Positions 15,739-19,823 are shown, counted from the first letter of the stretch. The stretch is 23,603 bases of DNA from a virus (IMGVR_UViG_3300042691_023995:64001-87603), one strand, 5' to 3'. Translations and numbers: made by a program. Notes: generated by a model from the letters alone, not told the origin.

Positions 15739-15861
15739 ATGGCAGAACAAGTAAAAACATTGCAGGATTTCTTGAAAGAATATCCTAATGATAAGGCAGA
15801 AGCTGTTAAGCAATATTTAATTTACGTAGGCCGCTTTGGCGGAGAATTTAAAACTAACTAA
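15739..15861 (+). CDS. 40-aa microprotein (not in ORF track)
   Basis: MAEQVKTLQDFLKEYPNDKAEAVKQYLIYVGRFGGEFKTN; TAATG coupling to the next gene; aaaaacttaatacaATG leader. Confidence 0.55.
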   Translation: MAEQVKTLQDFLKEYPNDKAEAVKQYLIYVGRFGGEFKTN

Positions 15862-16280
15862 TGGCAAAGTCACTATTTCCTGAGAAAATGCTAAGCTCGT
15901 CTGGTGGAGAACTTTCTCCAGATGTTGTAGCTACAAAGCTGACACACTTTGAACTTCAGCTACACAATCTACATTGGGCTACAAGAAGCTATGCAGAACA
16001 CCAAGCTCTTGGTGGACTGTATGACAAGGTGTTTGACCTAAAGGATGAGATTGTAGAAAAGATTATGGGCTACACAGGAACTAGAGCTAAGATAGGAGCA
16101 CATGCTCCTTTGAAAGACTATGCTGTTGGTGTATCTGATCAAGTGGTTAGTGAGCTGATTACATTTGCTAAGCAGCTTGAGAGCTACGCAGAGGCTAACA
16201 ATATGCCTGACATTGAGAACATTGCTCAATCCTTGAGTGGAGAAGCAGCCAAAACTAAATACCTACTAACACTGTCCTAA
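15861..16280 (+). CDS. Ferritin/Dps-like four-helix-bundle protein (phage DUF5856-like)
   Basis: LHNLHW..SYAEH..L..LY......DEIVE resembles the Dps ferroxidase HW..H..D..E pattern; ends YLLTLS. Confidence 0.7.
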   Translation: MAKSLFPEKMLSSSGGELSPDVVATKLTHFELQLHNLHWATRSYAEHQALGGLYDKVFDLKDEIVEKIMGYTGTRAKIGAHAPLKDYAVGVSDQVVSELITFAKQLESYAEANNMPDIENIAQSLSGEAAKTKYLLTLS

Positions 16281-16855: not shown

Positions 16856-17311
16856 ATGGCAAAGATTAAGAAAGCCCAAAGAGGCGCTGGTGTTCCTAAA
16901 GGTTATGTTCGTGGAGAAATGACTGGTCGTCTTATTCCTGAGAAGGAATATGAAAAGCATCAGAGCGATATGGCCAAGAGTCTTCAAGAGATGAAAGATC
17001 AATTGAAGAAAGACACCTCTAAACCTAAATCAGCTGTTAAGAAAACTGCTGTTGCTCCTAAGAAGAAAATGAAGAGCGGTGGCAAACTTGCTAAACAGGC
17101 TGCTATAGCAATCTCCATGAAGAAAAAAGGCATTAAGCCTAAAATGGATAAGGCTAAAGGTGGTAAAGAGATGATCAAACGTGCTGATGGAAGCTATTCT
17201 CAGCGTGGTTTGTGGGATAACATCCGTGCTAATAAAGGCTCAGGTAAGAAACCTACAGCTCAAATGTTGAAGCAAGAGAAGAAGATTAAAGCAGCTTCTA
17301 AGAAGAAATGA
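16856..17311 (+). CDS. Lys-rich basic protein A (putative virion internal/DNA-binding protein)
   Basis: Starts MAKIKKAQRG at ATG 16856 (the track start 16775 overlaps the previous gene); internal MKSGGK and AKGGK; contains GLWDNIRA. Confidence 0.7.
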   Translation: MAKIKKAQRGAGVPKGYVRGEMTGRLIPEKEYEKHQSDMAKSLQEMKDQLKKDTSKPKSAVKKTAVAPKKKMKSGGKLAKQAAIAISMKKKGIKPKMDKAKGGKEMIKRADGSYSQRGLWDNIRANKGSGKKPTAQMLKQEKKIKAASKKK

Positions 17312-17388
17312 AATTCTGTGGCATCCATATCATAGAACTAGATGAACATGGACTATGCCCAATTTGTCTTGAACAATCTAATAAATAA
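17308..17388 (+). CDS. 26-aa C-x2-H-x9-C-x2-C microprotein (putative mini zinc finger; not in ORF track)
   Basis: MKFCGIHIIELDEHGLCPICLEQSNK; ATGA overlap with the upstream stop; fills the gap to the next gene. Confidence 0.5.
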   Translation: MKFCGIHIIELDEHGLCPICLEQSNK

Positions 17389-17393
17389 TTGAA

Positions 17394-17741
17394 ATGGCTA
17401 AAATTAAAAAAGCTCAAGCTGGACTTAAAGCTCCTAACAAACGTGTAGGACCTGTTGATCCTTCAGGTGCTTGGACCAAGGTGCAAGAACAAACTCTTGC
17501 TGGAAAAAAGACACCTGTTAGTCTTAAAAAAGACAAGGAACTTGGTGCTACATCTATGGCTAAAGGTGGCAAGTGGATTCAGAAAGCTATCAAGAAGCCT
17601 GGGGCTCTTCGTAAGTCTTTGGGTGCTAAGCCTGGTAAGCCAATCCCTGCTGCTAAACTTGCCAAAGCTGCTAAAGCTCCTGGTAAGTTGGGTCAGCGTG
17701 CACGCCTTGCTCAGACTTTGAAAAAGATGAAGAAGAAGTAA
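17394..17741 (+). CDS. Lys-rich basic protein B
   Basis: MAKIKKAQAG leader; MAKGGK followed by WIQKAIKKPGALRKSLG..KLGQRARLAQTLKK. Confidence 0.75.
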   Translation: MAKIKKAQAGLKAPNKRVGPVDPSGAWTKVQEQTLAGKKTPVSLKKDKELGATSMAKGGKWIQKAIKKPGALRKSLGAKPGKPIPAAKLAKAAKAPGKLGQRARLAQTLKKMKKK

Positions 17742-17742
17742 A

Positions 17743-18225
17743 ATGGCTTCCATAAAGAAACTCCTTAAGAGCGCTCCTAGACTTAGAAACAGTCTTCCTC
17801 AGAATGTCACAAGAGGAAACGGAGTGAAGAACCCACAGAAGGCAGAAGCTTATGTGGGTAAAGGTGTTTTAAGAAGTGGTGATACAATTACAGCTGTCAA
17901 GGGATCCATTACACCTGTTCCTAACGGACCATTGATTAAGAAGAAAGGTCCTTTCAAAGGATCTACACTTAAGAAGGGTGGGAAGGTGACAGTGATAGCT
18001 GGTGGTGAGAAACATGTTGTGTACAAGAAAACTAGTCCAACAGGTGTTGGTAAGGGGAAGAAAGGACACATCATGGTGAACCATCCTACCAAAGACAAGG
18101 GTAAATGGGACACTATAGATCTCACAAAAATTGGTAGAGCCAAGACTGTTAAACAGGGTGTAGCTTCCACCAAGAAATGGCACAGAGACAATCCTGATTA
18201 TAAATATAAAGGTAAAAAGAAATAA
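17743..18225 (+). CDS. Lys/Gly-rich basic protein C
   Basis: MASIKK start; internal LKKGGK. Confidence 0.7.
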   Translation: MASIKKLLKSAPRLRNSLPQNVTRGNGVKNPQKAEAYVGKGVLRSGDTITAVKGSITPVPNGPLIKKKGPFKGSTLKKGGKVTVIAGGEKHVVYKKTSPTGVGKGKKGHIMVNHPTKDKGKWDTIDLTKIGRAKTVKQGVASTKKWHRDNPDYKYKGKKK

Positions 18226-18227
18226 CC

Positions 18228-18710
18228 ATGGCTAAGGTAAAAAAGGCCCAGATGGGTTATAGAGTGAGAGGTGAGGGTAGGAGTTGTGGTATTGAGCGTC
18301 AAGCTCGTAAGGATGAGCGTCAGTCTGAAAGAGAGTGGAGAAAGATGGACAGACAGAGTACACGTGAGGTGAAGCGTGATGAACGCATTGCTGCTCGTGA
18401 GGCTAAGAAAGTTCCTAAACAACGCTCTGGTGGTAAAACACCAGCTTGGCAAAGAAAGGAAGGAAAGAATCCTTCTGGTGGTCTAAATGCAAAAGGTGTA
18501 GCAAGCTATAGAGCTGCCAATCCTGGATCTAAGCTGAAGACTGCTGTAACAACAAAGCCTTCCAAGCTTAAACCTGGAAGCAAAGCTGCTAGTCGTCGTA
18601 AGAGTTTCTGTTCTAGAATGTCAGGTATGAAAAAGAAACTGACATCTGCCAAAACTGCCAACGATCCAAATAGCAGAATCAACAAAAGTTTGAGGAAGTG
18701 GAACTGCTGA
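18228..18710 (+). CDS. Basic protein D with a C-terminal DUF6321-like module
   Basis: MAKVKKAQMG leader; QRSGGK, then AWQRKEGKNPSGGLN..RRKSFCSRM..DPNSRINKSLRKWNC. Confidence 0.7.
   Translation: MAKVKKAQMGYRVRGEGRSCGIERQARKDERQSEREWRKMDRQSTREVKRDERIAAREAKKVPKQRSGGKTPAWQRKEGKNPSGGLNAKGVASYRAANPGSKLKTAVTTKPSKLKPGSKAASRRKSFCSRMSGMKKKLTSAKTANDPNSRINKSLRKWNC
18690..18710 (+). repeat. Copy 1 of an imperfect 21-nt direct repeat (copy 2 at 19124-19144), both encoding L-[R/K]-K-W-N-C-stop
   Basis: TTGAGGAAGTGGAACTGCTGA vs TTGAAAAAATGGAATTGCTAA, 16/21 identical. Confidence 0.75.
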
Positions 18711-19144
18711 TTAAGAAAAGATATTGGGGAAGGATTTCAAAGATTTCTGATGAACTAGGAAGGTTTAGATGTAGTAAGTGTGGAGAATGGAAAGATCCTT
18801 CTGAATTTAATAAAAATAGTCAACAGAAAACTGGATTAAGTTACGCTTGTAGAGAATGTATGAGAGTAGCTACTAGAAAATGGAACCTACCTGCAAAATA
18901 TAACATAACATCAGAGAGATTTGATGAGATGTTAAAAGAACAAGATTACAAATGTGCATGTTGTGGAGTGGAACTTGATACAACAGGTAGACAACATAAC
19001 AAACCACATGTAGATCATAATCATCTTACTGGAGAAGTTAGGGAAATTCTCTGCGGAAATTGTAACTTAGCTGCTGGTAAGGTAAAAGATAGTTCAGAGA
19101 TAGCCAAGAAACTGGCTGATTACTTGAAAAAATGGAATTGCTAA
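18698..19144 (+). mobile_element. Free-standing homing endonuclease, endonuclease VII (His-Me finger) family, with an N-terminal Zn-ribbon
   Basis: RCSKC..CREC; KYNIT..FDEML..Q..KCACC; VDHNH.TGEVR.ILC..CN. There is no ATG; the GTG at 18698 lies inside the last codons of gene D. Confidence 0.8.
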
Positions 19145-19165
19145 TACTTAAAAACTTAAATAACA

Positions 19166-19681
19166 ATGGCACGTATTAAGAAAATGCAGGATGGTGGTAA
19201 ATCCTCCCTCGGTATGAAATCAGTAAAGGCTGGATTTGATAAAAATCCTGGCGTTACAAGAGCAGACATCATTGTGGCTGCTAAGAAAGAAGCTAAGAAA
19301 GGAGCTAAGATTAAGAAAGCTCAAGATGGTGAGAAATTGAAAGTGGCTCTTCGCTCTGGTCAATTGAAAAGACTTGGTAAGTTGAGCGCTAAGAACCCTG
19401 AGAAAGCTGAGAAGGTAGGTAAAAGCATGGTTGAAAGAGCTACACGTAAGCAACGTGGTGTAGAATACTTGAAGAAGAATGCTCCAGCACTTAAGCCTTC
19501 AAGCGCTAAATCTTCTGTAGAAATGAAGAAAGGTGGTAAGTTGAAGAAAGCTCGTAGCGGTGCTACACTATCTCCTTCTAAGAAAAGCGTATCTAGTGTT
19601 CTTGGTGGTTACAAGCGTGTTATTGGAAAGAGCATGCGTGATGGTGGATCTATGAAAAAATGCAGGGGAGGTTGCTATTAA
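19166..19681 (+). CDS. Lys-rich basic protein E with repeated KKAQxG / xxxGG motifs
   Basis: MARIKKMQDGG, AKIKKAQDG, MKKGGKLKKARSG, MRDGG, CRGGCY. Confidence 0.75.
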   Translation: MARIKKMQDGGKSSLGMKSVKAGFDKNPGVTRADIIVAAKKEAKKGAKIKKAQDGEKLKVALRSGQLKRLGKLSAKNPEKAEKVGKSMVERATRKQRGVEYLKKNAPALKPSSAKSSVEMKKGGKLKKARSGATLSPSKKSVSSVLGGYKRVIGKSMRDGGSMKKCRGGCY

Positions 19682-19682
19682 T

Positions 19683-19823
19683 ATGAAAGCAGGTAAACCA
19701 AAAAAGGCCCCAAAGGTACCACCACCTAAGCCTATCAATGCTAATTATATGAAAGAGGCTGATACCAAACTTAGGAGGTCCAGTAAGATGTGGCCCATGA
19801 AGACAAAACGTCTATCTAAATAG
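19683..19823 (+). CDS. 46-aa Lys/Pro-rich basic microprotein (not in ORF track)
   Basis: MKAGKPKKAPKVPPPKPINANYMKEADTKLRRSSKMWPMKTKRLSK; starts 1 nt after the upstream stop. Confidence 0.55.
   Translation: MKAGKPKKAPKVPPPKPINANYMKEADTKLRRSSKMWPMKTKRLSK

Follow-up and report, generated by a model that had tools for sequence, protein, structure and literature searches.

Gly-Gly boundary elements in modular basic proteins of a crAss-like phage: a candidate counterpart of the T4 head-cargo code

Background

The closest described parallel to the proteins analysed here is the set of internal head proteins of bacteriophage T4. Ten N-terminal residues of IPIII are enough for targeting to the head; within the T4 leader, positions 4 and 7 are used for targeting and positions 8 and 10 for cleavage, and the head protease gp21 cuts after Glu (PMC9026906). 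IPII and IPIII start with MKTYQEFIAE, as read from the T4 record. The present analysis concerns a cassette of basic ORFs, gA, gB, gC, gD, gF and gG, in a 23,603-nucleotide stretch of phage DNA (IMGVR_UViG_3300042691_023995:64001-87603, hereafter the window), in which a short leader and an element of the form hydrophobic-x-x-Gly-Gly recur at the borders of small protein modules. An earlier note on this DNA proposed that a phage protease cuts after Gly-Gly to release DNA-condensing peptides, and knew of no account of such maturation in tailed phages. Multi-site cleavage of head-internal proteins is known, by gp21 in T4 and by gp175 in phiKZ (PMC9026906), although not at Gly-Gly.

The window is the terminal 23.6 kb of an 87.6-kb contig (CheckV completeness 76%). 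The source phage is crAss-like, since Pfam identifies the crassvirus capsid protein (Crass_capsid, 6.4e-26), tail ring proteins 1 and 2 (CrAss_Ring_1, 2.7e-11; CrAss_Ring_2, 8.7e-19) and the muzzle protein (crAss_MUZ, 4.2e-38). Close relatives have genomes of 111-125 kb, with terminal repeats in two of them. A megablast search of the window against phages yields no matches, and neither does tblastn of gA, gB and gC against isolated phages, so that there is no cultured relative with proteomics for the modules of these three proteins. Database relatives number at least 8000 for gD, at least 1580 for gC and at least 650 for gF.

Gly-Gly elements at the borders of protein modules

The five larger proteins of the cassette, gA, gB, gC, gD and gF, are strongly basic (pI 10.4-11.3, net charge +28 to +36 each), and the cassette also includes the 46-aa basic gG. 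Sequence comparisons support a description of these five proteins as chains of compact modules, with two putative boundary marks, namely, a 10-residue N-terminal leader, M-A-K/R-I/V-K-K-A/M-Q-x-G, and a junction or tail element, hydrophobic-x-x-G-G, with Lys usually next. All nine Gly-Gly strings listed in the earlier note are found in these ORFs, with an endonuclease VII gene intervening between gD and gF: MKSGGK (residues 72-77) and AKGGK (100-104) in gA; MAKGGK (55-60) in gB; LKKGGK (76-81) in gC; QRSGGK (65-70) in gD; and MQDGGK (7-12), MKKGGK (120-125), MRDGGS (157-162) and CRGGC (166-170) in gF. The layout of the cassette is as follows.

16856..17311, plus strand: gA, 151 aa, pI 10.4, net charge +32; leader MAKIKKAQRG, linker, MKSGG, Q module (KLAKQAAIAISMKKKGIKPK), KAKGG, W module (KEMIKRADGSYSQRGLWDNIRANKGSGKKPT...)
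17069..17083, plus strand: gA junction MKSGG, ahead of the Q module
17150..17164, plus strand: gA junction KAKGG, ahead of the W module; non-canonical, as P5 is not hydrophobic
17394..17741, plus strand: gB, 115 aa, pI 11.2, matching phrog_20603 and phrog_15706; leader MAKIKKAQAG, V module (KRVGPVDPSGAWTKVQE...), MAKGG, K module (KWIQKAIKKPGALRKSLG...)
17556..17570, plus strand: gB junction MAKGG; the K module begins with the very next residue
17743..18225, plus strand: gC, 160 aa; P module (residues 1-75), predicted to be disordered, with GSTLKKGG at its end; VT module (81-160), predicted to be a small beta-plus-helix domain
17968..17982, plus strand: gC junction LKKGG; predicted fold from residue 81-82
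18228..18710, plus strand: gD, 160 aa, assigned by Pfam PF19846 (E=1.4e-19) and alignment of relatives; leader MAKVKKAQMG, charged helical linker of variable length, QRSGG, DUF6321 module (70-160)
18420..18434, plus strand: gD junction QRSGG, PKMRSGG in most relatives
18698..19144, plus strand: endonuclease VII / HNH-type gene (Pfam PF02945, 1.1e-20; phrog_2633, 7e-33), outside the motif system
19166..19681, plus strand: gF, 171 aa; leader MARIKKMQDGG, module, internal leader KIKKAQDG (19307-19330), module, composite junction MKKGG+KLKKARSG (19523-19561), module, MRDGG (19634-19648), C-terminal decapeptide SMKKCRGGCY (19649-19678)
19683..19823, plus strand: gG, 46 aa, pI 11.0, net charge +13, the last gene of the cassette

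Related loci were collected by searching IMG/VR with the gD family, which gave 80 loci (numbered with the prefix L), and the window proteins were compared with all ORFs therein using phmmer. Every C-terminal module of the window proteins is a free-standing gene in some relative:

W module: free-standing MAKQMIKRADG.. (L010-L013); fused in gA, ..KAKGGKEMIKRADG
K module: free-standing MAEKNWIQKAIK (L046) and MAKNWIQGAIK (L024); fused in gB, ..MAKGGKWIQKAIK
VT module: free-standing MKKTKVTAGGEKH (L046); fused in gC, ..LKKGGKVTVIAGGEKH
DUF6321: free-standing MAKTPAWQRKEGK (many loci; pelagiphages HTVC033P and Greip); fused in gD, ..RSGGKTPAWQRKEGK

For the W, VT and DUF6321 modules and the L024 version of the K module, the Gly-Gly of the fused form lies opposite the free gene's Met-Ala (or Met-Lys) in the alignment, and the residue that follows Met-Ala (mostly Lys; K/N/T) aligns with the Lys after Gly-Gly; the free-standing K gene of L046 starts two residues further upstream than this register. 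The coincidence of Gly-Gly with module junctions in homologues, which the earlier note had named as a check, is thereby borne out for four modules. The statement of the earlier note that such modules occur as stand-alone small genes in aquatic phages was also correct: they do so in Pelagibacter phage HTVC033P, where the W-type and DUF6321 modules are adjacent tiny genes (gp37 and gp36, respectively), and in the loci L010-L013, L024, L046 and L057, with the free-standing W gene encoding 48-52 aa in L008-L013 and L057. Among 113 database representatives that carry the K module (drawn from homologues of the window proteins, so that the samples are not independent), Gly-Gly lies at most 5 residues before the Trp in 47, a KAKxGK variant is present in 24, and the protein starts at this point in about 23; KAKGGK and KAKDGK recur ahead of this module. 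The divergent crAss-like phages G004, G013 and G014 encode the modules as separate genes, which suggests that the modules can act as separate peptides.

The divergent crAss-like contigs L024, L046 and L057 carry runs of 8-12 tiny basic genes, mostly single untagged modules, and in L024 and L057 the run lies upstream of a capsid-like gene. Many of the small free-standing proteins of such phages, those of these three contigs included, have a hydrophobic-K-K-G-G-x-hydrophobic-K-x-K-K-K C-terminus; some of the latter are near-pure M/K/G repeats, e.g., MKAKKMMAKGGSLKKAKMGMG...

The same element accompanies the modules when their partners change, and motif-bearing junctions between different module pairs are of at least 10 kinds. 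The P module, the N-terminal half of gC, always ends in GSTLKxGG and is followed in relatives by VT, by DUF6321 (L007, L008, L009), by W (L034) or by a CWTGY..NCV module (L010). The VT module leads to DUF6321 via PMMKNGGSSP and to the CW module via MMKKGG or QYRSGG, QMKKGGSTP connects the gA Q module (KQQAAIAISMKKAGK module) with DUF6321 in L006 and L014, and in other phages DUF6321 is preceded by short leaders (e.g., MRAYYKKGG or ..RGxGRAMLASGG). Judging from these arrangements, the modules appear to fuse and split freely among aquatic phages. An origin of the Met of MxxGG as a fossil start codon was rejected, given that this position is M, F, L or Y in relatives (YYKKGG, KFAKGG, TLKDGG).

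Enrichment and conservation of the element

Against a baseline of 20,000 shuffles within each protein, plain Gly-Gly is not enriched (12 observed, 8.45 expected, p=0.12). The longer patterns, which were picked post hoc with the data already seen and therefore need independent evidence, are observed 7 times against 1.86 expected for GGK (p=0.0015), 7 against 0.70 for [KRSD]GGK (p=5e-5) and 5 against 0.27 for M..GG, a count that was reached in 0 of the 20,000 shuffles. The possibility, also raised in the earlier note, that composition explains the Gly-Gly frequency thus holds for the bare pair and fails for the extended motif. In the contig proteome (28,108 residues), five of the eight occurrences of M..GG fall within the 757 residues of the five basic proteins. 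Five of the 12 Gly-Gly pairs are not joints, namely, GGLN in DUF6321, IAGGE in the C-terminal module of gC, VLGGY and CRGGC in gF, and the MQDGG of the gF leader.

Conservation singles out the same residues. Among 16 relatives of gD, P63, K64, R66, G68 and G69 are invariant, and the linker before them contains indels; among 52 relatives of gC, the two glycines of the motif, G79 and G80, never vary, and L76, K77 and K81 hardly do. The codons for the second Gly and for the Lys differ between motif copies, so that the constraint lies at the protein level; for the same reason, a DNA-level recombination signal was rejected as the main cause of the motif. In the AlphaFold2 model of gC, residues 1-79 are disordered and residues 81-155 form a small sheet-plus-helix domain (pLDDT 65-84), which places Gly-Gly, in the model, at the end of a flexible segment directly before the fold. 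On this evidence, the Gly-Gly element is very likely a selected boundary signal.

The leader, MA[KR][IV]KK[AM]QxG, heads four of the five proteins, related leaders are found in L008-L013, and the element recurs inside gF (KIKKAQDG, KLKKARSG). The Gly-Gly tail and the leader are often adjacent in relatives, e.g., MKLGG-KIKKAQAG in L008 and VEMKKGG-KLKKARSG in the gF family. Two other explanations of these elements were discarded: KKAQxG as a transglutaminase Q-tag, as the Gln is missing in many copies, and a 2A-like co-translational break, as NPGP is absent. KKAQxG and hydrophobic-x-x-GG also occur together in a 1057-aa protein encoded among the genes after the muzzle gene, the position of crassvirus cargo genes.

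Outside the window, at G000:C1:28236-32316 (L086:8236-12316), 301-aa and 1057-aa proteins carry repeated GGWLDKY, KKAQxG and hydrophobic-x-x-GG. The 301-aa post-muzzle protein has at its start a segment, KQRRFFGAIAGG, which we take to be DUF3008-like, and its first 42 residues head a 1518-aa protein in G001, a complete relative. In most relatives of gF, the decapeptide SMKKCRGGCY (window 19649-19678) follows M-[KR]-x-G-G, with two Cys and one Gly invariant (KC[RK]xGC), and may form a metal or disulfide knuckle.

DUF6321 and the folds of the modules

Residues 79-158 of gD match DUF6321 (Pfam PF19846) with 70.9 bits against a gathering cut-off of 28.5. Between crAss-like, T4-like and other phage lineages, the 91-residue module (window 18435-18707) has an identity of 80-96%, and 55 columns do not vary among 22 sequences, a degree of identity that appears unusually high for a protein common to unrelated phages and points to a constrained target. 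No mention of DUF6321 was found in the literature searched. A fold search with DUF6321 retrieves nothing from the PDB and only its own unnamed relatives from the AFDB clusters; for the C-terminal module of gC, there is no usable match (best Foldseek E 0.57, best VIA Z 4.6). The K module of gB has a sub-threshold Pfam match to Fusello_VP2, the fusellovirus VP2 (E=0.016, 16 bits against a cut-off of 27). Known DNA-condensing proteins (histones, protamines) give no Pfam match above the cut-off and no clear fold match to the gC and DUF6321 models. A predicted complex of the major capsid protein, scaffold residues 150-428 and gB, modelled without controls, scores 0.00, which counts as evidence in neither direction.

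The same modules in T4-like aquatic phages

Some of these modules, including DUF6321, CWxGY, AARQAAIAINMKRRG and K, are common to phages with Gly-Gly joints and to T4-like phages. In about 10 T4-like loci, DUF6321 is joined to its neighbours not by Gly-Gly but by acidic EEV(E/D)(L/I)(D/E)E, and the K module is flanked in T4-like contigs by KEQLDE and NEAVELDE. The EEVE(L/I)DE joints fit the T4 head-protease site, so far as their sequence goes. The proteins with acidic junctions start with MKKFNEYINE, MKTFQEYLNE, MKKFNEFINE or MKKFNDYIIE, that is, with an aromatic residue at positions 4 and 7, I or L at position 8 and Glu at position 10, as in the T4 leader.

The pattern MK[KTS][FY]xx[FY][ILV]x[EK] is found in 18 ORFs of T4-like aquatic loci (L027, L033, L036, L037, L042, L072-L075, L077, L078 and L083 from IMG/VR, and L002, cyanophage S-PRM1), which suggests that these phages target much cargo to the head. 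Among the ORFs with this leader are a 399-aa protein, a HicA-like module and, from the isolate S-PRM1, an ORF with the start MKTYNQFVLE. The leaders of the window do not follow the T4 pattern, being basic and without Glu, and the T4-type leader is seen only in module-bearing contigs that are T4-like. Peptidase_S77, the family of the gp21 homologue, is detected at about 1e-34 in four of the five long T4-like contigs of this type and in none of the 10 contigs with Gly-Gly joints or untagged modules.

Association with the virion is documented in one case: 13 peptides of T4-GC119 were detected in purified virions of S-SM1 (PMC3037559, Table S8), and this cluster includes the DUF6321 protein PHM1_110 of P-HM1. 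Small basic genes also adjoin head genes in four contigs, G010, L024, L046 and L057. Taken at the level of sequence, the same cargo modules appear with a known load-and-clip code in one lineage and with the leader and Gly-Gly elements in the other, and the latter may therefore be read as a counterpart code. This comparison favours processing, and, given the T4-like leaders and the S-SM1 proteome, the cassette proteins are probably head cargo.

Neighbouring genes

In the source genome, the cassette sits among glycosyltransferase and other accessory genes, and the head operon is located elsewhere. Two genes upstream of the cassette, the window encodes a DUF5856 protein (15861-16280; PF19174, 4e-14; phrog_858, "starvation-inducible transcriptional regulator") that is conserved in relatives. 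The endonuclease VII gene inside the cassette looks like the insertion of a free-standing homing endonuclease, because in the complete relative G001 the gD-like and gF-like genes are separated by 22 nt without it; in cyanophages, T4-GC119 likewise adjoins an endonuclease in a mobile cassette (Sullivan et al. 2010). The terminal gG (MKAGKPKKAPKVPPPKP..) is a proline- and lysine-rich basic protein that lacks the Gly-Gly motif and is kept in at least 7 related loci.

G001-specific proteins are encoded at G001:C1 27112-31668 and 42300-47881 and by the late-strand ORFs 63380-63697, 96848-99019 and 101951-110876; in and around the late region, one of them contains several PAS domains (1e-26), another a SET domain (1e-6) and a third a class I chitinase domain (4e-9). 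Such cargo-like domains are unusual in a crAss-like phage.

Interpretation and alternatives

The explanation that accommodates these observations best, although it is advanced tentatively and with rather less than even confidence, is that the basic proteins are loaded as chains and then cut after Gly-Gly. The leader and the Gly-Gly elements would be this lineage's counterpart of the T4 capsid-targeting sequence and of the (L/I)-x-E cleavage code, respectively. The chains would be loaded into the procapsid and subsequently cut after Gly-Gly, and probably after the leader too, with peptides of ~25 to 113 residues and end pieces of 10-11 residues as products. Each released peptide would start one residue into the sequence of the equivalent free-standing gene product, and the peptides would stay with the packaged DNA or be ejected with it. 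We infer packaging in the source phage, cleavage, the scissile bond and any role on DNA from the comparisons given above. The cutting might fall to a protease of the host or to one encoded by the phage, with an unrecognised fold. Among host enzymes, Prp cuts the capsid and scaffold proteins of staphylococcal phage 80alpha.

Three features favour cutting: the register with the free-standing genes is exact; the internal junctions in the T4-like lineage look like pure cleavage sites; and the modules seem to end up separate wherever this can be deduced, be it from the separate genes of G004, G013 and G014 or from the gp21 sites. The broader proposition, that crAss-like phages and at least one other group of aquatic podophages without a recognised head protease mature their head cargo by a Gly-Gly-specific protease (of the host or of unknown fold) that frees peptides of ~25-113 residues, is possible but more doubtful.

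Against cutting stand, first, the protease searches. By six-frame search at E<=1, no Peptidase_C48, C5, S78, S77, C39 or ClpP (S14) is found either in this contig or in four relatives with a CheckV completeness of 99-100%. A Pfam scan of the larger ORFs of the contig detects no peptidase except the M15 endolysin, and the 45 proteins of G001 that have no homologue here contain replication, PAS, SET and chitinase domains and, by Pfam, no peptidase. In the second lineage with Gly-Gly leaders, represented by G010 and G011, complete 61.7-kb podophage-like genomes without the crassvirus capsid, S77 and S78 are absent as well, and the structural atlas of crAss001 makes no mention of proteolysis or of a head protease. 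The placement of the motif raises further objections. It often lies 5-12 residues from the C-terminus (..MKMGGKMKKK*, ..YKKGGIIKAKKK*) and is common in tandem forms (e.g., MKKGGKITKAKGGK), so that cutting there would free no more than very short peptides; the composite junction has the appearance of a unit's tail to which the following unit's leader has been fused; and untagged free-standing modules occur in crAss-like phages, so that the modules themselves do not need tags.

These objections lend themselves to the strongest alternative, which we consider somewhat less probable than cutting, namely, that the elements are tags for docking or tethering and stay uncut. By binding to DNA, to the scaffold or to the inner face of the capsid, the leader and the Gly-Gly tail would load basic proteins into the heads of a protease-less lineage, and the internal copies would be tails and leaders kept after gene fusion, giving multivalent chains. 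The failure to find a protease in two unrelated lineages that use Gly-Gly, the frequency of the motif as a C-terminal tail (also in tandem) of small free-standing proteins, the composites of tail and leader that simple fusion of tagged units would yield, and the presence of both elements in the 1057-aa post-muzzle protein all speak for such tags. Encapsulin cargo-loading peptides, short Gly-containing terminal peptides that dock cargo in an HK97-fold shell, offer a model for uncut tags, without sequence similarity to the elements considered here. Docking leaves unexplained, however, why the motif stops one residue before the module in all junction types; the equivalent internal junctions of the T4-like phages have the plain look of cleavage sites, without the leader's targeting features; and crAss-like relatives have untagged free-standing modules.

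A role outside the virion appears improbable. The proteins would in that case be intracellular basic proteins, e.g., binders of the nucleoid, RNA or ribosomes during takeover or replication, with Gly-Gly as a hinge or a nucleic-acid contact. The location of the cassette among glycosyltransferase and accessory genes, outside the head operon, agrees with this possibility, and no fold match connects any module to a virion function; against it stand the virion-associated DUF6321 protein of S-SM1, the capsid-targeting type of leader on the T4-like versions and the small basic genes beside head genes in the four contigs listed above.

Processing of the adenain or Ulp1 type, by a phage-encoded clan CE protease at (M/L/I)xGG, as in the earlier note, is very improbable. 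The GG-X sites and the basic substrates do resemble adenovirus pVII, the mu precursor and pVI (PMC4246237), and the conserved Cys-bearing decapeptide after MRDGG loosely recalls the pVIc cofactor peptide. Neither the Ulp-like (Peptidase_C48) nor the adenain-like (Peptidase_C5) protease that had been proposed is found at E<=1 in any of the five genomes, however, and the sites differ: the adenovirus consensus, (M/I/L)-X-G-G|X or (M/I/L)-X-G-X|G, has its hydrophobic residue at P4 (PMC4246237), that of the present motif is at P5, and the only one of the 12 Gly-Gly pairs to fit the consensus is IAGG at residues 85-88 of gC, inside the folded module.

That GG and GGK are functionless by-products of Lys/Gly-rich sequence is hardly credible: plain Gly-Gly behaves as this would predict, but the extended motif exceeds its frequency in the shuffles, stays constant among homologues although the adjoining linkers vary, and coincides with homology-defined borders in four modules and at least 10 junction types. 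For the copies at junctions, this sequence evidence already refutes the explanation.

Crassvirales are among the most abundant phages known. If the Gly-Gly joints are cut, a protease as yet unknown takes part in their assembly and the virion would carry a set of small basic peptides for which nobody has yet searched. Should the joints stay uncut, the motif would still be a compact, portable signal marking candidates for head cargo in thousands of uncultured phage genomes. A testable rule also emerges from the comparison, with the same modules bearing T4-type leaders and Glu sites in phages that have gp21 and Gly-Gly elements in phages that lack it.

Comparison with known systems

The T4 internal proteins IPI, IPII and IPIII, processed by gp21, are the nearest analogue (PMC9026906, PMC3012670). 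They, too, are small basic proteins with a common 10-residue leader and otherwise unrelated bodies, and their leader ends in the same short motif that recurs internally. The leader itself is different (MAKIKKAQxG here, MKTYQEFIAE in T4), the boundary pair is Gly-Gly instead of x-Glu, and the gp21 homologue, Peptidase_S77, is found in none of the five genomes searched here.

The inner-body and ejection proteins of phiKZ, 201phi2-1 and SPN3US, which are served by gp175-type proteases (PMC9026906, PMC10052503), share the use of multiple redundant short motifs at the borders of propeptides and domains. Their sites end in Glu, however, the protease is a relative of gp21, and the proteins are large and are not polycationic chains of modules.

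The cyanomyovirus "structural protein" T4-GC119 has the same C-terminal module, DUF6321, as gD (PMC3037559), although the cyanophage DUF6321 proteins differ from gD in their N-terminal parts and have no Gly-Gly junction. The polyvalent proteins of phages and conjugative elements (PMC5512222) are likewise chains of independently occurring modules that are thought to travel with DNA. Those proteins are long and combine multiple enzymes, whereas the modules described here are tiny, basic and non-enzymatic, and no embedded peptidase domain was found in them.

The precursors of adenovirus pVII, mu and pVI, which are cleaved by adenain (PMC4246237), resemble the cassette proteins in being very basic DNA-associated precursors with Gly-Gly sites and a short Cys-containing terminal peptide, cutting being putative in the present case; they differ in the position of the hydrophobic residue (P4 in adenain sites, P5 here), in their C5 protease, which was not found here, and in belonging to an unrelated virus lineage. 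If cutting at Gly-Gly is real, the elements described here would constitute a second, independent load-and-clip code beside the T4 leader with its (L/I)xE sites, convergent with adenovirus core maturation.

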